From the IMG/VR virus record IMGVR_UViG_3300029391_000001, positions 19,880 through 83,879 of that record: 64,000 nt of DNA; one strand, written 5' to 3'. The translations under genes and the position numbers were made by a program. Positions 2,700 to 51,230 of this stretch are shown here, in pieces. The notes beneath the pieces are model-generated. The model ran no database searches. It worked only from the letters and a program-made list of their open reading frames with translations, and was not told where the DNA came from. This DNA is from a virus. Position 1 is the stretch's first letter. Each line of letters begins with the position of its first letter.

Positions 2700-4871
2700 T
2701 TAATGTATTTGTCTTATTTTGTCATTATATGGATTTCCATCATGAAGCTAAGCCAACTCTATTTCAGTTCTTTTTTCTTCAATATCCATTTGTCTATCTT
2801 TATAAGTAGAATCAGACTGAGCTTTAAGCCAGTTAACTTTATATTCTAACTGCATCTTCTACTATTCTAATCCCAGTCTCTATTCATCTAAGCTTTCAAT
2901 CTTTTGCTGAGCTTTCTATAATTCTTGCTGTAACTACTAAGCCTATTGAGAGGTTTCTTCTAATTTTTCTTGTAGTTGCTGAAGCTGATTATTTTCCTCT
3001 TTGCGAACTTGAACAGCTTTCTTAACCTTATATTTAAGGTCTGTCAGACTCTTAGATGTAAGAGCCTCAAAAATAATATCTGGATCCATCTGTTGATTTT
3101 TTACGAACTCTGGAATGATTGCTTTTATAGTCTATAAATCTTCCATCACTTCTGAACTAGCAGTAATATGAATATCGTAGTCAGTAACAGTAAAATACTC
3201 AGGAAGTGCGGTGAATATCTGTTGATATTTATCCCCAAGTATAATAGTTCCAGTTAATCCTTTCTTATAAGTAACTTTAGCCTAATTAAGACTATCTAGT
3301 AGTATCTCGCAGGTTATTAAATCCATCTGCTAAAAATAGTGCTTAGTTACTATATACGAGTTAGCTACTCCCTACTTAATATTAGTAACTGCATCTCTAG
3401 TTTCTATACCGTTAAGTCGTTCCCTAAATACTCCAGTTATTGATGATGTAGTTTGTTCTACTGATTGAATAGCTAGTTCAATAGCCTATACAGCCTATGC
3501 TTTTAAGGTATCATCAAATCCGTTATATATCTAGTTTGGAGCTTGCTGTCCGTCATTCCTACCTTCTTGGCTTGAGTCTATCCACATGATACCACCTTTT
3601 TTATAAGCTAACCATTTTTGTACTCGTTCTGGCCATTTAACTCCTAAGTTGGTAGGCAACAGAGACATATCCATAATAACTCCAGCAGTACCACTATTAG
3701 CTATTAGATTATCTCTATAATAGTTTAATAAGTCGTATCTATCCTACAGATGTGCACATTTTAATATAAGAGAATAAGGCTACTAAGAGCGATTTAAGAA
3801 ATATACTCCATTTACCGATAAAGAACAGAAGTTGGGATTATCTTTAGACCTCATAACAGTCTTGTCTAATCCTCTAAGAATATATATCTCTTCTCCTATT
3901 CTGATAGTATTGTATCTCTACATCACAAAATCATCATCTGTTTCAATCCATTCAACATCATAGACTGGGATTAACTAGAACCTATGAGCACTATATTCAT
4001 TGTCTGGATAGCCGGGAATGGTTTCATGATTCTAATCTTCATTTACTACTGTACAAGTATCTCCATATACTCTTCTATAAACAGCAGCTGAATCATCAGC
4101 TCGCCATTCATCTTTTAGTCTTCTTAAATCTTCTCTAGATATTTCTTTGCCATATTTAGCTAAAATCTAACTCTTACTCATCCACTTTCTTACTACAACT
4201 CTATATGAGTTCCTTACATATGGAGATTCTGGATTTCTATCAACAAATGTATTAAGTGGGTTTAATACCTCTATTTCAATATTAGTTCCAGAAGCCGATG
4301 ATTTCACTCTAAAGAATGTATAACCAGTAATTAATAAGTCTGTTAGTAACTAACGTAACTTAGTAATTAAATCGGTTTCTCTGGATTGCATAATATAATG
4401 TACTATATTCTAAGCTGCAATTTCATATTGAGAAATAAAGGATTGGTCAATATCCTATATAATTTTATCTAACTAAGTCTTTACAGCTTTATCAGTAATA
4501 TCCTTGCCATCAATAAACTTAAGAATTGAATTACTTAAATGGTCTTTCAAAAACTTTACTATTCCCTTGGTTATTTCTAGCTATTTTTCTCTTGTTATAT
4601 TACTGATAGTATCTGAATCTTTGCAAGAAATTTTCGGAAGTATAGGAGTTCCTAAATATTCTCCAACTAGAGCATCTACGTGTTTCTTTAATAAAGGCGT
4701 AAACTCTACCGAAGTGGGGCTACCTATTCCGAAGTTTTCTTCCAGATAACGGAACTATTCAGGATCTCTTTTACCATTATAATAATTATAAGCTTTCTGT
4801 AACTCATACTTATCATATACAAGTTCCGCAATAGCCTCGTTTGTCTTGTCTATTAATTCCTTCTCTTTCAT
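2700..4871 (-). CDS. portal protein (SPP1 gp6-like); about 30 in-frame TAG codons
   Basis: N-terminus MKEKELIDKTNEAIAELVYDKYELQKAYNYYNGK resembles, from memory, a YY.G motif near the SPP1 gp6-like portal N-terminus; lies just downstream of terminase; 2172 nt in one frame ending TAA 2700-2702; spot-checked mid-gene. Confidence 0.6.
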
Positions 4872-5091
4872 AACATAAATTATGTTGTTCTGGAGGAAGT
4901 TTAGTAGCGTTATAATACTTAACTCTTTGCAACTTCCTACTTCTTAATTCTTCCTTAATAAATGGCAGAAATTCTTCGTCTGGTAAATCTGCTATTATTA
5001 CTAATGGCATTTCTGACCTATCAAAGTTAAAAGAGACTTTATACCCAACTGGGTCTAAACTCTCAATATCTAGTCCGCCTATATACTCCAT
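4813..5091 (-). CDS. small hypothetical protein overlapping the terminase 3' end and the portal 5' end
   Basis: ORF fragment 4813..5274 frame; TGA 4813-4815; internal Met at 5089-5091 is my guess for the real start. Confidence 0.3.
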   Translation of the reverse strand: MEYIGGLDIESLDPVGYKVSFNFDRSEMPLVIIADLPDEEFLPFIKEELRSRKLQRVKYYNATKLPPEQHNLCYEREGINRQDKRGYCGTCI

Positions 5092-7426
5092 TTTGTACAA
5101 GTCCCTCATATATTCTAGGATCACTTGTTTCAACTCTGTATGGGTCATCATATTCGTTTCTTTGCATATTAAGTTCAGGAGTTTTCTTAGTTGGAATAAC
5201 TCCAAATCTTTTAATTCCTCTCTCGTCGTAATAGTAACCAAAATCTTGGAACTATTCAACTTCTTTCTCCACAAGTACGGGCTGTCTTCCTGATAGCTCT
5301 TGGTCTGCTAACTCAGTCATACCTACAGCGGCTACAATATCATACTTACCCTTATTTTCATCATTATATGCAGTGAACTATTCTAGCATTTCTTCGAACC
5401 ATATAGTATGGCAATAGTCTTCTATAAAGGCGGCTGTTAAATCAGTATGCTATTCGATTATAGTTTTTGTAGCAGGAGTTCCATACTATTTAGTAGTTCC
5501 ATTTCTGACATTAGTTAGAGTAGCTCTTGGGCGCTTCATAAAATAGTTAAGGCATCCTTTTTCTCTAGCCCAAGTAACCATACCCATACGAGTAGCTTCT
5601 ATATTTATTTTACAATTATAATAGCGAGCTAAACACATAGCTATTTTATAGGCTTCTCTGATGTCTCCAGGTCTATCCTTGTACATAGCAACATACTGAG
5701 GGTCATTCATACCAAACGCACGTTTCTTAATCGTTATGCAGAAATCAGACGGGTCTCTGGTTTCCTTAGAAGTCTAATTCGCTCCAATATCAATACCGTC
5801 TATACCTGCTACGTATAAGTCTCGCATCTCTTTATAAACTGGAACTTCAAAATCCTAGCCATTATCTTCTGCCTCCTATCTAAGCTTTTCCATTTGTTCT
5901 TTATATAAGTCAGACCATATTGGATGCTCTAGAATTTTTACTTTGCCATTGCTGTTAGGAATCCATTTAAAACCATCAATATTATCCTAAGTATGTTTAT
6001 TATTTTTGTAAAAATAATCAATATAACCACATTCGGGTCTTGGGCCAATTTGTTTAAGTCTTATATTAGCTATCTATTCGGCAACTAAAATTTTATTAAA
6101 CTTATTAACACCTTCTAGATTAAATGCTTCTTCTGCATTCCAACAACGTTCAGCGCATTTCTTTAGGTAGTCTTCTGGTACAGCTAACAGATTATCTCGC
6201 TCCTCCTATAAGAATTTCTTATATTCCACAGTATTACATACTCCTCTGTGGTCCATAAATTCTGGATTCAAAGATTGTATAAAGTATGGAATAAAGAATC
6301 CACTCTCTATAGTAGTCCCATCCTAAGTCCAATTATGTCTAAATGGAAGAATCTTATATGCTCTTGGATTATAGTAAATCTTTTTTAAGCCCTCTAGAGG
6401 AGCACCCATATCACCGCCAGTACCTCCAAACAACATTGTTCCACGAGGCATACCTTGAACTTCACAAAGTTCTTGACCTTGTACCACAGCGGTATCAAGT
6501 CCAGGCCAGGAACCAGCTTCATCATATATTAATAAATCTACACGGTCTCCACGAATATTAGATGGTTTAGCTCCGTTAATTGCTACAACCTCAGATTTAA
6601 ATCCTACGTCTTCAAACTAACCATTTATTTTGATTTGTTTACCTGATTTCTTTCTCAAATCCTGGTCAATAAGTCGCAATTTAAAAAATCCTCCTCCAGT
6701 ACAGGTATTTAAGAATGTAAGAGCATTATCAAACTTACTAAAGGTACCCTTAAGGAAGGTATCATTAAAGCAAGTAATCATAACCCTACTTCTTCTAATA
6801 ACAGAGTACATACGAGCAGAAAGAGAGGCGTTTATTTCAGAGAATCCAATAGAACGAGCTTTCATTAAAGCTGCGTGCTTGTGTAGCACTCTAGCCATCT
6901 ATAGATAATGAAAGAACATATAATGTGATGCAAAGAATATTGGGAAGTCATTATCAGTACCCTCACCAGAGGCTTTCTGCTAGTCAATAGTAGGTAACTA
7001 ATAGAAATTTAAGAAGAAGTAATTATCTCCAGTAATGGTGTATCCATTAACTGTCATTCCATACTTACATCTTCTATATTGCTCTTTCCAAAATTCGTTG
7101 TACCGCTTACTATCTCTAAGGTAGGGACAGTATTGACCAGTTCGTTTATATACTTCCCTAGTCTCGGTAAACCAATCTGGATTAAAGTCCAATCCATGAG
7201 TTTCGTCAATAGGTCTGTATCCAGTTATTTCATAAGATAAGGTAGGGTCAAATACTTCTATTTTATCTCCTATTTTAACATCCCAATAGTCAGAATTTCT
7301 GACCCTTTCCTCTCTTATTTTCTATACTAATTCTCTAGCTTCTTTAGCATCCTCTTTCTATTCTTTTTCTCTTACCTAATCTACAATATTCTATATTTCT
7401 TCAGGTAATATCTTTTTTCTTGGCAT
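5063..7426 (-). CDS. terL: terminase large subunit; about 20 in-frame TAG codons
   Basis: Hand translation gives LLIYDEAG (Walker B-like), a GIDGIDIG nuclease-like motif, and continuous sequence across every TAG; ATG 7424-7426; TGA 5063-5065; 2364 nt in one frame. Confidence 0.75.
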
Positions 7427-7428
7427 AA

Positions 7429-7989
7429 TTAAAAGTCTCCTGGGTCAAAACCATCCACAGCTCCAGCTCTAACAGTAGATTGTTCAGTAAGTTCTTTCTT
7501 AACCTAGTCTTCTAGTGTTATGAGTTCTTCATGAACTTTGTGAAGGGTAGCCATTTCCTTCATTACTTTTTCAGCCTGGAATACTGGTTTGCCGTTATTA
7601 TCACGCTCATTTAAATCTACAATAGTTTCGAAATAATCAATAAACTAGTCTGCAGCTCTTTTAGCTGCTTCTAGTAATTTTATTGACTTGTTTGAATCTT
7701 GTAACGCTCTGTATTTCCTACAAGCTTCTCTAAATATAGGGTCATTAAATTCCGACTCTGTCAATCCAGAATCGCTAATAGCTTCGTCATGTCGTTCATG
7801 TTCCGAATACTAACTGTATGGACTTTTCCAGTCTATAGCTAAATAAATGTAAGATAGTTCTCTAGTAGCTCTATCCTTTTCTGCAGATTTATCCCTCTAG
7901 ATTAAAGCCTTAAATTCCTTAACTAGCAATATCTCTGGTTCATTTATTTCTAGCTATTTAGTTAAAGTGTTATAGTTAAATACATTCAT
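7429..7989 (-). CDS. putative terminase small subunit, by position only; 5 in-frame TAG
   Basis: Ends TAA 7429-7431, 2 nt before the terL ATG; 561 nt in frame; no recognisable motif. Confidence 0.4.
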
Positions 7990-13279: not shown

Positions 13280-13296
13280 AACTATTAATTTTGGCG

Positions 13297-13368
13297 TTGC
13301 CCTACTAGGATTCGAACCCAGACTAAATGATTTAGAGTCATCTGTGCTGACCATTACACCATAGGGCA
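13297..13368 (-). tRNA. suppressor tRNA, anticodon CUA (reads TAG); Gln-type body
   Basis: Full cloverleaf: acceptor tgcccta/tagggca (U1:A72), D-arm gtgt/gcac, anticodon stem gatga/tcatt, loop cuCUAaa, T-arm ctggg-ttcgaat-cctag. Nearly identical in architecture to tRNA-Gln(TTG) at 27771. Confidence 0.8.
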
Positions 13369-15615: not shown

Positions 15616-16628
15616 AAGATTGGGGAGAAATCCCCTTTCTTTTACATACAAATAATCTTTGTAGAAATGGACATAAGAAAAAAGTTTAAGACTATAAAGT
15701 GTTTGTATAATTGGGGCATAATCTATGACCCAAAGACTAATGAAAAGTTAAATTTCAAATCCAAACGTGTTTATTGCGTAACTTCTTGGGCTTGGATTAT
15801 GACCTATCAAAAGTCAGAAGAAGATATTCCTGAGATAATTAGGATAGTCTTTGTAGATTAACTCTAAGGTACTATGAGTTTTAAATAAAGTGCCCACATG
15901 AACCCCATCATCGGAACGTTGGTTAACGGGGAAAACAACATTACAACAAATCAAATCAAAGTTTTTGTTTAGTTTTAGGATTATATCTGGCAGCTTGGAA
16001 AGACAAGCAAAATCTTTATACCTATCTGCTAATAGGTTTAGTGTTCAACGCGAACATTCGGTAAAAGAAGGAAATTGTACACTCAAAAAGACCCTCAATT
16101 TCCGGACTTTTTCCGATTTTCAAAAAATCCGCCAGAGTAGGAGTTATATAGCTCACACTCTCTATGGACATTATTTAGTATTTAGCCTATAAAAAGGCAA
16201 CAAAAAGCGAGGCTACGCAGAAGAGCCTAACACCAAAAATAACTGCTACAAATTCTATGTGCATATTCGCAAACTTGAGCACTATAGGATTTAGGTTGAG
16301 CTGTAAGGATTGGTCACTTATAGCAATATTATGAGTACTGCTGATATGTCAGTGACCGTACATATCACATATAAAATATGTTATACAATTATGTTAGAAG
16401 TTGCCAGGTCTAAGAAGCCTGATTAAAATCTCTAGATAGTAAGAGAGAACCTCATAAGGGTTCATTTTCCATCTCGAACCTATTCGCAAGTTTATAGACT
16501 AGCTATCTATAAATTTAGTGATGGAATACCAACGAAGTTGGTGTTCCCGCTTTGCGAACGTTGATAACGTCCTCAGCATGGAAAACTGAGAAATAATCTC
16601 CTATCTTATTCTAGATATAGATAGGATT

Positions 16629-28742: not shown

Positions 28743-28819
28743 AGGGACGTATCCCCTCAAGCTTATACCTTGTAGAAAGGGTAGTTGGTCGCACGTGGGT
28801 TCAAACCCCACCGTCCCTA
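28743..28819 (+). tRNA. non-canonical 77-nt tRNA-like gene (perfect acceptor and T-arm; anticodon hairpin with 8-10-nt loop uuGUAGaaag)
   Basis: agggacg/cgtccct acceptor, gtggg-ttcaaac-cccac T-arm; no standard D-arm or 7-nt anticodon loop; a tRNA 5'-half-like fragment (ggaccta ta gctcagccaggtcagagc) lies just upstream at 28699-28742. Confidence 0.35.
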
Positions 28820-30446: not shown

Positions 30447-30520
30447 GTCTGGATGCCTGAGTGGTCTAAGGGAACGGTCTGCAAAACCGTGTTTCGTGGG
30501 TTCGAATCCCACTCCAGATT
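30447..30520 (+). tRNA. tRNA-Cys(GCA)
   Basis: Loop cuGCAaa; U73. Confidence 0.7.
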
Positions 30521-31983: not shown

Positions 31984-32167
31984 CAAAATTTAAGTTTTAT
32001 GAAAATAAAGTGTACAGTATGTAATAAAGAATTTTATTATCCAGACCACCATGTGTTTATCTGTAGCGAATGTGCGGAGAAGGCTCTAGGTAGGGAAATA
32101 ACTGATAAGGATATTAATGATTCATTATTTAATATCCCATTTAGAGAGAAGTACTTTAAATCTTAAT

Positions 32168-32252
32168 ATCCGTGTGGGTGAATGGTTTAGCCATCAGTCT
32201 GCAAAACTGAAAAGAGAAATCTTTAATGAGGGTTCGAATCCCTCCACGGATT
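32168..32252 (+). tRNA. type II (long variable arm) tRNA with GCA anticodon and U73; Cys-like identity in a Ser/Leu-type body
   Basis: Perfect acceptor atccgtg/cacggat, T-arm gaggg-ttcgaat-ccctc, anticodon stem tcagt/actga, loop cuGCAaa, variable-arm hairpin aaaga-gaaa-tcttt. Confidence 0.55.
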
Positions 32253-32272
32253 CTAATTTTAAATTTAAAAAT

Positions 32273-32908
32273 ATGGCATATATTTATTGCATTACAAATT
32301 TAATTAATAGCAAGCGATACGTAGGAAAAACTACTACTTCTATAGAAGAGCGCTGGAAGGAACATTGTTATGACTTTTAGAAAGAAAGATGCAACAAAAG
32401 ACCTTTATATGATGCCATGAATAAGTATGGTGTTGAGAACTTTATGATAGAGGAATTGGAATATGTAGATAGTAACTCTGAATTATCTGAAAGAGAAATC
32501 TATTGGATAAAAGAGCTAGGAACTTATGGTTCTAATGGGTACAATGCCTCTAAAGGAGGAGATGGCACTATTCTATACAATCATAGTGAAATTGTAGAAT
32601 TAGCTAGATTGGGATATACTAGTTCTTAGATACAAGAAAAAATAGGGTGCTGTAAAGACACTATTTACAAAGTTTTGAAGGCAAATAATATAAAAATTAG
32701 AAAAAGTAACGCAAAGTTAATTGCTTAGTATGACTTAGCAGGTAATTTTATACAGGTATTCTTTGGTTCCAGAGAAGCTTAGGAATGGTTAATTAATAAC
32801 GGAATTACTGACAATAAATCTGCATAGAGTCATATTATAGGATGCTGTAAGAATAAAACCAAATCATAGTATGGCTACATTTGGAAATATCTTCCAGAGC
32901 CTATTTAA
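32273..32908 (+). CDS. GIY-YIG homing endonuclease with C-terminal NUMOD-like DNA-binding region; 5 in-frame TAG
   Basis: YIYCITN...KRYVGKT GIY-YIG motif; verified codon by codon to TAA 32906-32908; AQYDL matches, as I recall, a conserved Y-Q-YDL segment in GIY-YIG relatives when TAG = Q. Confidence 0.7.
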
Positions 32909-33054
32909 TCTTTAAATCACTGTTTCGACATTTTCAGTCTAAATGCCGTGTCTGGAGACGTTACCAACCAGTCGTGCTATACGGTTAGAATAGTCCGTGC
33001 CTCACTGGTGATAGAGGCATCCCTGGGTAGCGGATGTAAAGTAGCTGCCAATAT

Positions 33055-33132
33055 CGTGGAGTAGAGAAGTGGTCATCTCGCTAGGCTCATAACCTAGAAA
33101 TCGTCATAAACGGTTCGAATCCTACCTCCGCA
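33055..33132 (+). tRNA. tRNA-Met(CAT)-like, possibly initiator type (C1.A72 mismatch), with degenerate T-stem
   Basis: Acceptor cgtggag/ctccgca, D-arm gaga/tctc, anticodon ctagg-cuCAUaa-cctag; T-loop ttcgaat present but stem weak and 6 extra nt. Confidence 0.4.
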
Positions 33133-33377
33133 ACGAAACTCCTTTTGTGGCTCTGAATTAGATTAATTATTAACAATTTTAAACTTTGATGTTATGAAGA
33201 AAGTAATTAATGTTGTGAAGAAAGCTGCTAAGTGGTATTTTGAACAGAGTTCTAAGAGCTATACATGGTTAGTTTCTGGAACTATTCCGCCTCCTTATAG
33301 AGGTCTAGAGTAAAGATACTACTAAAAGGTAAGTACCAAAGGGGTACTTATCTACACCCGTGGAGAAAATTAACTAT

Positions 33378-33449
33378 TGGGGTATAGTTCAAAGGTCAGA
33401 ACTTTTGACTGTTAATCAAAGAATCATGGTTCGAGTCCATGTGCCCCAG
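33378..33449 (+). tRNA. tRNA-Asn(GTT)
   Basis: Loop cuGUUaa. Confidence 0.7.
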
Positions 33450-33978
33450 CTATTGACCTTATATTAGATTATGCATCAGTGTGATTATTGTTGTTGGTAC
33501 TACAGTGGAAATTGTGATTGTCCATATGTAATGAAGAAACAAGCGTGTGAAAATGCTTTGAAAACTAAAGAGAGAAATGAAAGACCTATTAGAAAAGTAC
33601 AAAATGTTTCAAACTCCAAAACTAGCTAATGAGATTTCATGGAAAGACATGAAGGAATTTAACTCTTATATGAAAGAAGTAGTTCGTGATTATAAGATTA
33701 AACAGGCTAAATCAATTCAGAGTGCTAGAAACGTAATAATATCCTGACCTGGCAAGGTAAAAATCCATTCGGGGTTTAAGTTGAAGCCAGTCCCTGCGAA
33801 ATCATAGAGACCTTTTCTGACACGATAGTCGATGAACTGAGAGAGTAGCATGGTTGTGAACTTATGCTACTAGAACATGATTCAAACAAAAAAAACTTAT
33901 CTGGTGTTGTTAAGTTATGGAATCTTAACAGTGGAAATTTATGGGTATGTCACCAATTAAAAAGAAAATCCCAAAAAT

Positions 33979-34051
33979 GGGCCGTTAGCTCAAATGGCTA
34001 GAGTGCTGGTTTTGCACACCGGAAGATAGGGTTCGAGTCCCTGCGTGTCCA
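33979..34051 (+). tRNA. tRNA-Ala(TGC), G3.U70 present; acceptor base imperfect
   Basis: Loop uuUGCac; T-arm taggg-ttcgagt-ccctg. Confidence 0.55.
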
Positions 34052-34255: not shown

Positions 34256-34319
34256 GCGGGATGATAGCAGAGGTAGCTAGTCAGGCTCATAACCTGAAGG
34301 TCGTCGGTTCGAATCCCGT
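34256..34319 (+). tRNA. truncated or aberrant tRNA-Met(CAT)-like element
   Basis: Good acceptor gcgggat/atcccgt, D-arm, anticodon tcagg-cuCAUaa-cctga, but only 15 nt where variable loop plus T-arm should be. Confidence 0.3.
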
Positions 34320-34352
34320 TACTAAGTTATTTTTAACAATTAAAATTAGATT

Positions 34353-34778
34353 ATGGATTTCAAGAATCTTACAAAGGAATCTCTTCCGAAAGAATTTCAG
34401 GAGAGAATCGAACGTTTCAATCGTTTGTTCGTTGAAGCTGGTGATGGTACATTTGAAGAAAATGACCTATTTGGTTATGAAATGGCTTGTATAAAGCAAG
34501 CCCTATCATTCTCTGAGTTTTTCAAAGAAATGAGTCTAGAGGAATGTAAAGCCTTCTATGAGAAATATCCTAGCTTATTTGAGCTGATTGAGGCTATCAA
34601 AGACAAACTTCCGTACTTTGATAATGGTCATAGTGGAAACTCTATGAGCATGAGTTGGATGCTATACAGGTGTTATAAGGAGAAACCTGAACTTGTTCCT
34701 TATATGCACGGTTGTTTAGCCCAACTTGTTGGGGACGAGGGCTATCATGATAACCGTTCTGATGTTCCAAAACTATGA
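34353..34778 (+). CDS. hypothetical protein
   Basis: ORF track. Confidence 0.45.
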   Translation: MDFKNLTKESLPKEFQERIERFNRLFVEAGDGTFEENDLFGYEMACIKQALSFSEFFKEMSLEECKAFYEKYPSLFELIEAIKDKLPYFDNGHSGNSMSMSWMLYRCYKEKPELVPYMHGCLAQLVGDEGYHDNRSDVPKL

Positions 34779-35284
34779 GTGTAATACAACAAGTTTATTT
34801 AGCTGAAGCTGGTTATTCTATTTACATAAAGGGAATTAAACCAGATAAGGATAATGAATGTTCTGGTGAGATTACTATAAATGGTAATCCCACTAGATTA
34901 GAGAGAAAAGAACGCTATCATATTGATGGCAGTATGCTTGAGCATAAAGATTCAGAAATGTGTCGTAGTTGCTGGGAAGAACTTAATGGAATTGGTAACA
35001 AAACATTAGGTTATTATACATCTGGGCAGAAGTACTTATCATCTAAATGTCAAGAAATAAGGACTAATGCTCGTAGAGTATTAGAAAGTTCCGAACGTGA
35101 GAAAGTATGTCAATATTGTCATAATCATGAATTTGATGCAATACTTGAAGTACATCATCTTAAAGGAATATTAGAATTTGACGAAGACACTCTTATTAAG
35201 GAGATTAACAACGAGAATAATTTAGTATGGTTATGTCCGAATCACCATATTATGTTAGAGAAGGGTTTAATTAGTCTGGAGTAA
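34775..35284 (+). CDS. HNH endonuclease
   Basis: CxxC...EVHHLKG...N.LVWLCPNHH. Confidence 0.65.
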   Translation: MSVIQQVYLAEAGYSIYIKGIKPDKDNECSGEITINGNPTRLERKERYHIDGSMLEHKDSEMCRSCWEELNGIGNKTLGYYTSGQKYLSSKCQEIRTNARRVLESSEREKVCQYCHNHEFDAILEVHHLKGILEFDEDTLIKEINNENNLVWLCPNHHIMLEKGLISLE

Positions 35285-48477: not shown

Positions 48478-50028
48478 ATGGAAATAATTAATGCTACAGA
48501 TGGTTACAAGTTGGGCCATCACAGAATGTACCCCGAAGGTACTGAACAAGTTTATAGTAACTGGACTCCTAGAAGTAATAAATACTTCCCAGAAGCAACC
48601 GAAGGTTCAGTAGTATTTGGTATTCAATACCTAATCAAAGAATATCTCATTAAACAGTTTGAGAAAAACTTCTTTAATCTACCAAAGAAGGAAGCTGTGG
48701 AGATGTTCTATCGTAGAGTAAACAACTTTGTTGGTATTGAATCCGTTGGGTACAGACATATTGAAGCTTTATATGACCTTGGGTATCTACCAATTCGCAT
48801 AAAGGCTCTTCCTGAAGGTTCTGTGTGCCCTATTCGGGTTCCCATGATGACCATTACAAATACTCTACCCGAGTTCTTTTGGTTAACTAACTACTTAGAG
48901 ACTATTATCAGCTGTACCTTGTGGATGCCATGCACATCTGCTACTAGAGCTAGGCTTTATAAGAAAGAGCTACATCGTCATGCTTGCAAGACTGGTTTTC
49001 CAACAGATGTAAATCTTGGTTTTTGTTGTCATGATTTCTCAATGCGAGGTATGGCGGGAATGGAAGCCGCAATTATATCTGGTATGGCGCATATGACTTC
49101 TTTTGTGGGAAGTGAAACTATTCCAGCTATTGCTGCTTTGGAAGAATATTATGGAGCTAATTCAGACGAGGAATTGATTGCTGCTACAGTTCCAGCAACA
49201 GAACACTCTGTAATGTGTGCTGGAGGGGAGGAAGATGAGCTGGGCACTTTCAAACGTCTAATTAATGATTTGTATCCTTCTGGGTTTGTTTCTATTGTAT
49301 CTGATACTTGGGATTTCTGGAATGTAATTGAAAATTTCTTGCCCAAGCTGAAGAAAGACATTATGGCTCGTGATGGTAGAGTAGTAATCCGTCCTGATAG
49401 TGGAGACCCAGTAGATATAATCTGCGGGTTGAGAACTAATCCTCACTTCAATACCAGAATGAAAGAAGGTAAGTATTATTGCTGCTATGCTCCGTTTAAC
49501 GACGATGCAGAGTATGTTGAAGTGTCCGAAGGTCAATATTATGGGGCATATTATATGCTTGGTAAAATCTTCGGATGGAATACTACTTCAAAGGATTACC
49601 GTTATCCTAGCACTAAGGTTGGTCTGCTTTATGGAGATTCTATTACTCTAGAACGTCAAAAGCAAATCTACTTGAGATTAGAAAACGCTCATATGGCGGC
49701 TTGTAATCTCGTTCTTGGAGTAGGTTCATATTCCTATCAGTATGCAAGTAGAGATAGTCTTGGGTTTGCTATTAAGGCTACTGCTTGCGTAGTAAATGGC
49801 GAGTTGAAAGAAATCTTCAAACATCCTAAAACTGATGATGGTACTAAGAACTCTTTGAAAGGTTTGATTGCTGTCTATAAAGGTCTGGATGGGAAGTATA
49901 CTGCTACCGACCAGGTCTCAATCGAGGAAGAAAAAGATGGATACTTAGAGACTGTCTTTGAAGATGGTATCTTGAAGAAAGAATATTCTCTTGAAGAAAT
50001 CAGACAAAGAATTGACCATGGACTTTAA
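48478..50028 (+). CDS. nadV: nicotinamide phosphoribosyltransferase family protein (NadV/NAMPT or NARP1 Namat homolog)
   Basis: TDGYKLGHH..YPEGT...VYS.WTPR N-terminal signature. Confidence 0.75.
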   Translation: MEIINATDGYKLGHHRMYPEGTEQVYSNWTPRSNKYFPEATEGSVVFGIQYLIKEYLIKQFEKNFFNLPKKEAVEMFYRRVNNFVGIESVGYRHIEALYDLGYLPIRIKALPEGSVCPIRVPMMTITNTLPEFFWLTNYLETIISCTLWMPCTSATRARLYKKELHRHACKTGFPTDVNLGFCCHDFSMRGMAGMEAAIISGMAHMTSFVGSETIPAIAALEEYYGANSDEELIAATVPATEHSVMCAGGEEDELGTFKRLINDLYPSGFVSIVSDTWDFWNVIENFLPKLKKDIMARDGRVVIRPDSGDPVDIICGLRTNPHFNTRMKEGKYYCCYAPFNDDAEYVEVSEGQYYGAYYMLGKIFGWNTTSKDYRYPSTKVGLLYGDSITLERQKQIYLRLENAHMAACNLVLGVGSYSYQYASRDSLGFAIKATACVVNGELKEIFKHPKTDDGTKNSLKGLIAVYKGLDGKYTATDQVSIEEEKDGYLETVFEDGILKKEYSLEEIRQRIDHGL

Positions 50029-50455
50029 TCATCCTTTTGGGAAAGAAGCTTGCAAGAAACGACTATTAGAAGAGTATCATAAATACAGAAAGCTAATAGT
50101 CGCTTTCGATTTTGATAATACTATTTTCGATTACCATAATACTGGCGGAGATTATAGTTGCGTTATAGAACTACTTAAAGAATGCTCACTTCTAGGTTTT
50201 GAAATGATTTTATTCACCACTGATGAAGATGATTATAAAATTATGGCAAAGCAGACAATTTGTATGCGATTAGGAATAGCAAATATTACTTCTAATACTT
50301 TATCTGCTCCAAACATTAGTAGTTCTATATTCTCTAAATCTAAGAAACCTTATTACAATATCCTCCTAGATGATAGGGCAGGTCTAGAAGAAAGTTATGA
50401 AATCTTAAAATATGTAGTAGATGAAATTAAACTTAATCAACAAGGAAATCAGTGA
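49991..50455 (+). CDS. HAD-superfamily hydrolase
   Basis: FDFDNTIFD (DxDxT). Confidence 0.45.
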   Translation: MKKSDKELTMDFNHPFGKEACKKRLLEEYHKYRKLIVAFDFDNTIFDYHNTGGDYSCVIELLKECSLLGFEMILFTTDEDDYKIMAKQTICMRLGIANITSNTLSAPNISSSIFSKSKKPYYNILLDDRAGLEESYEILKYVVDEIKLNQQGNQ

Positions 50456-51230
50456 AATTAAGTACGATGTTACTAGATTTCCTGATGGAGAGCCTCAGTT
50501 TTTCCTTACTGAGGAATTAAACAGAAAGGAATCTATTGATGTCATTTGTAGAATATCTAATACTGAGGATTTATTCCTCTTAATACAAGTAGGAGATATT
50601 TTAGATAGACAAGAAGTAGAATGGGATTTACATATTACTTATTTAATGTCTATGCGTATGGATAGAGTAATGAGTTTTAATCGTCCATTCTCCTTGAAAG
50701 TAGTATGTAATATGTTAAATAGCTTAGGCTATAGAAACATATATGTTCTTGAGGCACATTCTAGTAGAACTTTTCATCTTCTTGGTGACAGATGTTTACC
50801 TTGGGAATTTGGACACCACTCTTGGATTCCAGCCCAAAGTAATATCGTGTTCCCAGACCATGGGGCGAAGGACAGATATGGAAGTAACTATTCTCACTAT
50901 GGTTATTTAGTCTTCAAAAAGGAAAGAAATCTAGAGACTGGAAGAATTGAGTCCTTTGAAATAGAGGAGTCTAAGAATTGCTACTATTCTACATTTGTGT
51001 TCATTGATGACTTGTGTGATGCTGGAGGAACTTTCCTAGGAGAGCTTAAGGTTCTCAAAGAGAGATATCCAAATAGCAAGTTTATCATAATCGTATGTCA
51101 TGCAGTTAATGATAAAGGCCTGGTTAATATGTGTAATAATTTTGACCAGGTTATTGTATCTAATTCTCATAGGGATATTAATTATCGTCCCAGCAACGAG
51201 AACTTAACTGTAATAGACGTTTGTAAATAA
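50421..51230 (+). CDS. ribose-phosphate pyrophosphokinase family protein (Prs or ADPR-PP synthetase homolog)
   Basis: FPDGE; DDLCDAGGT PRPP-binding-like motif. Confidence 0.55.
   Translation: MKLNLINKEISEIKYDVTRFPDGEPQFFLTEELNRKESIDVICRISNTEDLFLLIQVGDILDRQEVEWDLHITYLMSMRMDRVMSFNRPFSLKVVCNMLNSLGYRNIYVLEAHSSRTFHLLGDRCLPWEFGHHSWIPAQSNIVFPDHGAKDRYGSNYSHYGYLVFKKERNLETGRIESFEIEESKNCYYSTFVFIDDLCDAGGTFLGELKVLKERYPNSKFIIIVCHAVNDKGLVNMCNNFDQVIVSNSHRDINYRPSNENLTVIDVCK

Follow-up and report, generated by a model that had tools for sequence, protein, structure and literature searches.

The window (the whole 64,000-nucleotide stretch of DNA analysed here) belongs to a phage of the human gut whose genome comprises approximately 185–190 kb and has a GC content of 35.5%. 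An "uncultured Clostridium sp." MAG (L187) bins one copy of this phage, which gives a weak hint about its host. ARAGORN recognizes 21 tRNA genes in the window, nearly all of them on the plus strand amid small ORFs, and the ORFs include replication genes and an NAD-salvage pair. No gene for a synthetase, a CCA-adding enzyme or tRNA repair was found among the large ORFs of the window, nor a selB/cysS-like gene among the large ORFs scanned. Two of the tRNA genes are assigned to cysteine. The first (30447–30520, plus strand), which the original prediction had described as an ordinary tRNA-Cys(GCA), is indeed seen by both ARAGORN and Rfam; it is a class I molecule with U73, a G1.U72 first pair and a 5-nt variable loop. 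The second, the subject of this study, is called by ARAGORN at 32168–32253 as tRNA-Cys(GCA) with the anticodon at position 34, and the Rfam tRNA model (RF00005) matches 32168–32252 over its full length with 56.3 bits (E = 8.7e-10), exceeding the gathering threshold of 29 bits.

A number of other features of the window deserve mention. The NAD-salvage genes lie close together on the plus strand and encode a nicotinamide phosphoribosyltransferase (48478–50028, E = 2e-182) and a ribose-phosphate pyrophosphokinase (50421–51230, E = 2e-51). A RAGATH-14 RNA motif occurs at 16396–16602 (plus strand; 156.6 bits, slightly over the gathering score of 149.1). Two long minus-strand frames (2703–4943 and 5066–7444) contain 28 and 19 in-frame TAG codons, respectively, and, with TAG read as sense, match a portal protein (E = 1.6e-48) and a large terminase (E = 6.2e-63). 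The strand of these frames also encodes a tRNA (13296–13368, labeled "Pyl" by ARAGORN) with a CUA anticodon, U1:A72 and A73, and only 4 of 55 plus-strand ORFs use TAG as stop. The late genes of this phage appear to recode amber, as has been described for gut phages. Among the remaining tRNA genes, an 80-nt tRNA-Met(CAU) (33055–33134, plus strand), conserved across the phage family, has a variable region of 11 nt that seems to be unpaired (AAATCGTCATA) and scores weakly against Rfam (39 bits). Three decayed genes with weak Rfam matches only (34259–34326, 33979–34051, and 28743–28819, plus strand) include a tRNA-Met(CAU) with a 6-nt T-arm deletion relative to L029, a tRNA-Ala(UGC)-like gene with G3.U70 and a damaged acceptor stem, and a weak tRNA-like match where relatives carry tRNA-Leu(UAG). 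The tRNA-Ser(GCU) and tRNA-Ile(GAU) genes present in relatives do not occur in this genome.

The gene at 32168–32252 (positions 1–73 of the tRNA, plus strand; CCA not encoded) can be read, from its sequence and the ARAGORN call, as a class II-like 7/5 cloverleaf, that is, one with a 7-bp acceptor and a 5-bp T stem. The acceptor 5' strand ATCCGTG (32168–32174) forms seven of seven Watson-Crick pairs with 32245–32251, starting with A1:U72, and is followed by U8 and G9. The D arm (GGTG-AATGGTTT-AGCC, 32177–32192) parses into a 3-bp stem (G10:C25, G11:C24 and the wobble U12.G23), a G13.A22 mismatch and a 9–10-nt loop, with A14, A15 and G18G19. The anticodon arm TCAGT-CTGCAAA-ACTGA (32194–32210) has a 5/5 stem, U33, the GCA anticodon at 32201–32203 and A36A37A38. 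The variable region (AAAGA-GAAA-TCTTT plus the unpaired AAT, 32211–32227) comprises 17 nt instead of the 4–5 nt of a class I loop: a 5-bp stem, a GAAA loop and three unpaired 3' nucleotides, the last of which is U48 and forms the Levitt pair A15:U48. The T arm GAGGG-TTCGAAT-CCCTC (32228–32244) has a 5/5 stem, and the acceptor 3' strand CACGGAT with the discriminator (32245–32252) closes the molecule. In the RNAfold prediction the acceptor stem forms together with the anticodon, variable and T hairpins, at a minimum free energy of −26.7 kcal/mol (z = −2.59 versus shuffles).

The original prediction had proposed four perfect stems, a variable-arm hairpin (aaaga-gaaa-tcttt) and a GCA anticodon combined with U73. 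The hairpin is borne out, as RNAfold recovers it and the structure tools do not reject the arm, and so are the anticodon (ARAGORN) and the discriminator (T at 32252). As for the stems, the acceptor (7/7), anticodon (5/5) and T (5/5) helices are perfect, whereas the D stem has only three pairs and the G13.A22 mismatch. A 3-bp D stem with a 13:22 mismatch is normal both in tRNA-Cys and in class II tRNAs.

Two features recognized by cysteinyl-tRNA synthetase (CysRS), the GCA anticodon and U73, are present and a third, G1:C72, is absent, A1:U72 standing in its place. G1:C72 is the usual first pair of tRNA-Cys and is read by the CP1 domain of some CysRS enzymes as a minor, species-dependent element. 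Class I tRNA-Cys, including the companion at 30447, is the closest relative of the gene by sequence: both have GCA, U73, the anticodon loop CTGCAAA (the same in the two tRNAs of this phage), a 3-bp D stem with a 13:22 mismatch and the T loop TTCGAAT. They differ in the variable region (17 nt with a 5-bp hairpin versus 4–5 nt), in the first pair (A1:U72 versus the usual G1:C72) and in the Levitt pair A15:U48. CysRS relies chiefly on U73 and the GCA anticodon as determinants (PMC9976931), and sensitivity to the first pair is found in some CysRS enzymes (PMC5389517).

According to reviews, long variable arms are restricted to the Leu, Ser and bacterial Tyr tRNAs, together with tRNA-Sec and a few Sec-like oddities (PMC7609411; PMC9976931). 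The arm can be compared with those of the genuine class II tRNAs of the same phage family, which differ in the number of unpaired nucleotides 3' of the arm and in the discriminator: one and mostly G73 in Ser (acceptors GGAGGTA or GGAAGGG), two and A73 in Leu, and three and A73 in Tyr. With three unpaired nucleotides and U73, the arm studied here is Tyr-like and not Ser-like. It also shares with bacterial and phage tRNA-Tyr a short arm stem and a tetraloop, and its anticodon is one transition away (GUA to GCA). However, the TyrRS determinants A73 and U35 are both absent (U73 and C35 are found instead), and the body of the molecule is not close to the tRNA-Tyr genes of the phage. Within the family, the paralogues that come nearest to it are the class I tRNAs for Cys, Trp and Gly, and a recent origin from a Tyr, Ser or Leu gene of the phage by anticodon change can be ruled out. 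A Sec-like 8/4 fold is ruled out by the sequence as well: T8 is unable to extend the acceptor, and A26/A44 are unable to extend the anticodon stem.

Two readings had been offered at the outset: an unusual Cys isoacceptor, or a Ser-type tRNA retargeted to UGY codons. Comparison with the tRNA-Ser(GCU) genes of relatives speaks against the latter. In most relatives a genuine tRNA-Ser(GCU) with G73 and a GGAGGTA acceptor lies elsewhere, between tRNA-Trp and tRNA-Phe, and its acceptor stem and T arm are unrelated to the gene at 32168, which is not a GCU-anticodon Ser gene in these relatives. The gene lacks G73, a Ser-type arm (a longer stem with at most one unpaired 3' nucleotide) and orthology with Ser-GCU.

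The 86-nt sequence of the gene is identical in 17 other assemblies (16 IMG/VR viral contigs and GenBank MT837398), so neither GCA nor U73 is an assembly error. Given these assemblies and the separate Ser-GCU of relatives, a sequencing error or a mutated Ser-GCU is ruled out. Using the neighboring AAA ATPase as an anchor, 34 syntenic loci were collected, in which the slot of the gene, after tRNA-Gly(UCC) and tRNA-Gly(GCC), occurs in five states: the 86-nt gene, an 87-nt variant (L048), a second tRNA-Cys of class I, an empty slot (L051) and a broken copy (L040). The variant shows five differences, including A1G (giving G1.U72), a D-loop insertion, an arm-base change and a T-loop change, and keeps GCA, U73 and the fold. 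Only a 115-nt tRNA module is common to this locus and the window, the context being otherwise different, which indicates that what has been retained is the tRNA itself. In some relatives the slot is filled by an unrelated class I second tRNA-Cys (GCA, U73, C1:G72, 75–76 nt), and the copy in L040 is a clear pseudogene with an 8-nt anticodon-loop deletion and a 25-nt insertion. The companion class I tRNA-Cys was found in all 34 related loci examined. The gene is accessory and dispensable in its own phage family, as replacement by a class I gene, absence and breakage attest. Moreover, the 600 nt 3' of the gene are as invariant as the tRNA in 12 of 14 haplotypes, so its perfect conservation is no proof of selection on the tRNA alone.

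The slot (window 31990–32990) is a mosaic cassette in which about 930 nt (the tRNA and small ORFs) give way to about 160 nt in L049 and to 133 nt in L051; near it, at 34775–35284, is an ORF for an HNH endonuclease. In some relatives an odd tRNA-like gene of 81–83 nt (TCCGATTTAGCTCAG...AATCGGAAC) is found after tRNA-Gly(GCC) and before the second, class I tRNA-Cys (approximately 12984–13066 in L020, L023, L024, L027, L028, L042 and L047; approximately 12759–12841 in L033 and L035; 12758–12838 in L050). Its acceptor, D arm and T arm are normal and its anticodon region is oversized, with inconsistent ARAGORN anticodons (ATA, ACT, AAG); an intron or a loop expansion may be present in it. Several relatives (L019–L028, L042, L045, L047, L049 and L051) also encode an 87-nt tRNA-Asn(GUU, G73) with a 16-nt variable region (CGTGAGAAATCCCATC; for instance L023 13686–13772), where the window has a normal 73-nt tRNA-Asn (33378–33450). 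The motif GAGAAATC is common to this long tRNA-Asn, the arm of the gene at 32168 and the long-arm Cys tRNAs of unrelated phages.

Long-arm genes of this kind are not confined to one family. A pattern composed of the Cys anticodon loop, a long gap and a T arm matched at least 120 viral contigs, and 66 distinct long-arm GCA tRNAs from very diverse phage contigs, with variable regions of 11–23 nt, could be parsed from the ARAGORN calls among the matches listed. The pattern fixes the anticodon and T loops and the sample is that of the matches listed, so class frequencies are rough, and the occurrence of CTGCAAA in all 66 is no independent evidence since the search imposed that loop. U73 is present in 63 of the 66 and G1:C72 in 59 (among the matches listed), which makes A1:U72 in the gene at 32168 atypical. 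The class can be delimited by a 7/5 fold, GCA, U73, a variable region of at least 10 nt with a short hairpin and about three unpaired 3' nucleotides, and an R15:Y48 Levitt pair, all of which are found in this gene. Among the matches listed, the arm has a median length of 15 nt, stems of 3–4 bp, mostly three unpaired 3' nucleotides and GAAA as its commonest loop, a profile like that of tRNA-Tyr and unlike that of tRNA-Ser (18 nt, 4–7 bp, mostly one unpaired) from the same loci.

Several observations indicate that the extra helix is selected. Hairpins of at least 3 bp form in 50 of 67 variable regions among the matches listed, versus 26.8 ± 3.5 in shuffles. In a gap-free alignment of 13 long-arm Cys tRNAs, 95.5% of the cells are paired versus 33–44% after sliding of the partners, every one of the five helices covaries and each of the four extra-arm pairs has changed on both sides. 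The Levitt pair covaries too (among the matches listed, G15:C48 in 55 and A15:U48 in six, including the gene studied here). Judged from these sequence patterns, the long-arm Cys tRNAs are real L-shaped molecules. This bears on the idea that the gene is a neutral relic, a redundant tRNA-Cys copy whose variable-loop insertion was tolerated because the copy was not needed. The presence, absence and replacement of the gene in its slot, the pseudogene in L040 and the other decayed tRNA genes in the window are in line with such a history. On the other hand, all stems are intact, with an arm that forms a 5-bp hairpin capped by a GAAA tetraloop, the L048 variant keeps the fold in another context, and dozens of unrelated phages have the same architecture, with compensatory arm changes and an excess of paired variable regions, making decay a very unlikely explanation.

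The amino acid identity of the class can be approached through the discriminator. Among the matches listed, discriminators of long-arm tRNAs in the same loci follow the anticodon across isotypes, as they do in short tRNAs: U in 61 of 63 Cys and in 8 of 9 Thr, and A in all Met, Val, Ile and Pro. Genuine Ser tRNAs of these loci have G73 in 49 of 59 cases and U73 in 9 of 59, so U73 alone does not exclude recognition by seryl-tRNA synthetase (SerRS). Phage class I tRNA-Cys is the nearest neighbor by core sequence in 38 of 71 long-arm Cys tRNAs among the matches listed. In 36 of 44 tRNA-rich loci among the matches listed, including ten arrays of 15–20 isotypes and a 27-tRNA array (L286), the stretch fetched contains no tRNA-Cys other than the long-arm gene.

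These data permit an assessment of the proposal that the gene encodes a Ser-accepting missense tRNA, whose arm would be read by SerRS so that serine is charged and UGU/UGC codons are in part translated as Ser, in the manner suggested for allo-tRNAs. In its favor, the arm is long, long-arm tRNAs with G73 or U73 are possible SerRS substrates (Mukai et al., 2017; PMC5389517), some phage tRNA-Ser have U73 as stated above, and a Ser-type GCA tRNA does exist in a bacterial genome. Against it, G73 occurs in none of 63 long-arm Cys tRNAs versus 49 of 59 genuine Ser tRNAs from the same loci (Fisher p = 1.7e-24) and discriminators track anticodons; the gene at 32168 has three unpaired nucleotides where family Ser tRNAs have one, together with other acceptors and G73; the class arms are shorter than Ser arms; the core is closest to class I Cys; and in ten near-complete arrays this form is the sole tRNA-Cys found in the fetched stretch. 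Serine charging is therefore highly improbable and the retargeting of a Ser-type tRNA finds no backing, while the reading as an unusual Cys isoacceptor gains from the retention of U73 and GCA in the gene's own lineage and in 63 of 66 independent phage long-arm GCA tRNAs among the matches listed, from the ten arrays and from the kinship with class I tRNA-Cys.

The Ser-type GCA tRNA just mentioned comes from an Acidobacteriota MAG (L230) and is a 96-nt molecule with a GGAGAGA acceptor, a 24-nt variable region, G73 and CCA. A true Ser-type GCA tRNA is thus unlike the phage long-arm molecules, and the L230 gene is a candidate for a Cys-to-Ser missense tRNA or an allo-tRNA-like one. Sec-like 92-nt tRNAs with GCA were also encountered (L166 and L211).

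With regard to distribution, when phage tRNA-Cys genes with one common anticodon arm and T arm were sampled irrespective of arm length, 18 of 75 distinct sequences proved to be long-arm (about 24%, a rough figure for the matches listed), 4 intermediate and 53 short. About 85 of 111 listed pattern matches in viral contigs are true long-arm GCA tRNAs, versus about 10 of 120 in cellular assemblies; of the latter (again among the matches listed), three lie in arrays of 20–29 tRNAs per 8 kb and one belongs to the same phage as the window. In cellular genomes, the type thus seems to be rare outside tRNA arrays. Long versions (at least 80 nt) of other class I isotypes occur in the same loci, namely Asn, Thr, Met, Val, Gln, Lys, Asp, Pro, Ile, Glu, Arg and Trp, and make up 10.3% of such isotypes in phages with long-arm Cys versus 3.2% in those with only short Cys (OR 3.5, p = 8e-6). 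The multi-isotype long-arm tRNAs come from diverse viral contigs (L052–L162 and L285–L289) and have discriminators that match their anticodons; L285 alone encodes long Glu, Asp, Asn (two), Cys (two) and Met tRNAs.

Three cultured phages carry 84–89-nt long-arm genes annotated plainly as tRNA-Cys: Xanthomonas phage XacN1 (AP018399, 45202–45290), Pseudomonas phage D6 (OQ363659, 18840–18923) and Rhizobium phage B1VFA (MT770738, 344–427). They share the 7/5 fold, GCA, U73 and a long arm with the gene of the window (in their case a 15-nt variable region with a 3-bp stem, a 4-nt loop and about four unpaired nucleotides) and differ in their unrelated sequences, G1:C72, encoded CCA and proteobacterial hosts. 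The tRNA-Cys of Mycobacterium phage Tonenili is an ordinary 72-nt molecule. BLAST of tRNA-sized queries against GenBank phages returned mostly Tyr, Ser and Asn tRNAs, and two array-sized queries gave no useful homologues. No description of a 7/5 long-arm tRNA-Cys in phages was found in the searchable literature, in which most subscription journals are absent, and the architecture is not discussed in the XacN1 paper or in a 2020 review of non-canonical tRNAs. The gene at 32168 is a member of a widespread and apparently undiscussed class of phage 7/5 class II-like tRNA-Cys.

The closest described relatives of this class are the Sec-like selC* tRNA-Cys, which have been shown experimentally to be cysteinylated and used in translation (Mukai et al., 2017; PMC5389517). 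Both groups have U73, a GCA anticodon and a long arm, and some selC* tRNAs even have A1:U72. However, in selC* tRNAs the acceptor/T arrangement is 8/4 and includes a bulge, the anticodon stem is longer and the anticodon is often UCA. Their genes reside in bacterial chromosomes, often beside selB*/cysS*, whereas the gene of the window lies in a phage tRNA cluster and encodes a plain 7/5 cloverleaf whose anticodon and D stems comprise 5 and 3 bp, respectively. Allo-tRNAs (Mukai et al., 2017) likewise combine a long arm with anticodons other than those of Ser, Leu or Tyr, and with G73 or U73. They are distinguished by 8/4 or 9/3 folds, a Sec-like D arm with a tetraloop, predicted or demonstrated Ser acceptance and frequent linkage to toxin-antitoxin loci; in the phage long-arm tRNAs, unlike these, discriminators go with their anticodons and the arm differs from that of Ser tRNAs, and the gene at 32168 has a 7/5 fold and a 3-bp D stem. 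A different outcome is represented by the nematode nev-tRNAs, which are class II tRNAs with Gly or Ile anticodons that are charged with Leu. They resemble the phage molecules in placing class II architecture on class I anticodons, but their identity has changed to Leu, whereas the evidence gathered here points to retained identity.

Considering these data together, the gene is probably a functional accessory phage tRNA-Cys of class II-like architecture that would be charged by CysRS. It would be transcribed within the plus-strand cluster of tRNAs and small ORFs, matured by host RNase P and the CCA-adding enzyme, charged with cysteine by the host CysRS via U73 and GCA, and used to decode UGU/UGC. 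Retention of Cys identity is supported by the tracking of anticodons by discriminators, the arrays in which the long-arm gene is the sole tRNA-Cys, the class I Cys core, the CysRS determinants and the cysteinylated selC* tRNAs. As a counterpoint, A1:U72, where G1:C72 prevails in 59 of 66 class members, may affect charging by some CysRS enzymes. The variable arm gives the molecule a class II-like (7/5) architecture, with Tyr-like arm geometry. The reason favored here for its presence is that it may provide a Cys decoder whose body is unlike that of host tRNA-Cys and which would be, for example, less exposed to host tRNA-targeting defenses. Alternatively, CysRS may simply tolerate the arm, since a D stem of 3 bp, as is typical of class II tRNAs, is already a feature of tRNA-Cys.

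The main role might also lie outside decoding, the molecule acting, whether charged or not, as a tRNA-shaped decoy, sponge or regulator that could, for instance, titrate a host nuclease recognizing class II arms. The gene is an accessory one, made redundant by the class I tRNA-Cys that occurs in 34 of 34 related loci examined, its arm geometry is Tyr-like, and the window carries an NAD-salvage pair, presumably of the kind that phages use against NAD-depleting defenses, all of which would suit such a role. A decoy has no need for a full set of Cys identity and decoding features, yet U33, GCA, A37, U73, the acceptor, the T arm and the Levitt pair are conserved class-wide, the long-arm form is the sole tRNA-Cys in many arrays (in the stretches fetched), and these phages are not linked to any nuclease specific for tRNA-Cys or for the arm; we consider this role unlikely. 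Beyond the cysteine-decoding role preferred for the single gene, a broader and rather speculative proposal is that Tyr-like extra arms on class I-type tRNAs (most often Cys, but also Asn, Thr, Met, Val, Gln, Lys and others) are a phage-level adaptation that leaves identity unchanged and creates a distinct tRNA pool, which might escape or titrate host tRNA-targeting nucleases or be told apart by phage factors.

Long-arm 7/5 molecules make up about a quarter of the phage tRNA-Cys sampled, although reviews limit long arms to Leu, Ser, Tyr and Sec-like tRNAs. For annotation, this means that long-arm GCA genes should not be taken as anticodon-mutated Ser or Tyr tRNAs or as evidence of recoding. It also raises the question of why phages add arms to class I tRNAs and whether this is linked to tRNA-targeting defenses, a question that the cultured phages XacN1, D6 and B1VFA make accessible to experiment. 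If charging with cysteine holds true, these tRNAs would offer natural scaffolds for engineered tRNAs and would imply that CysRS, EF-Tu and the ribosome accept a wider structural range of tRNA.
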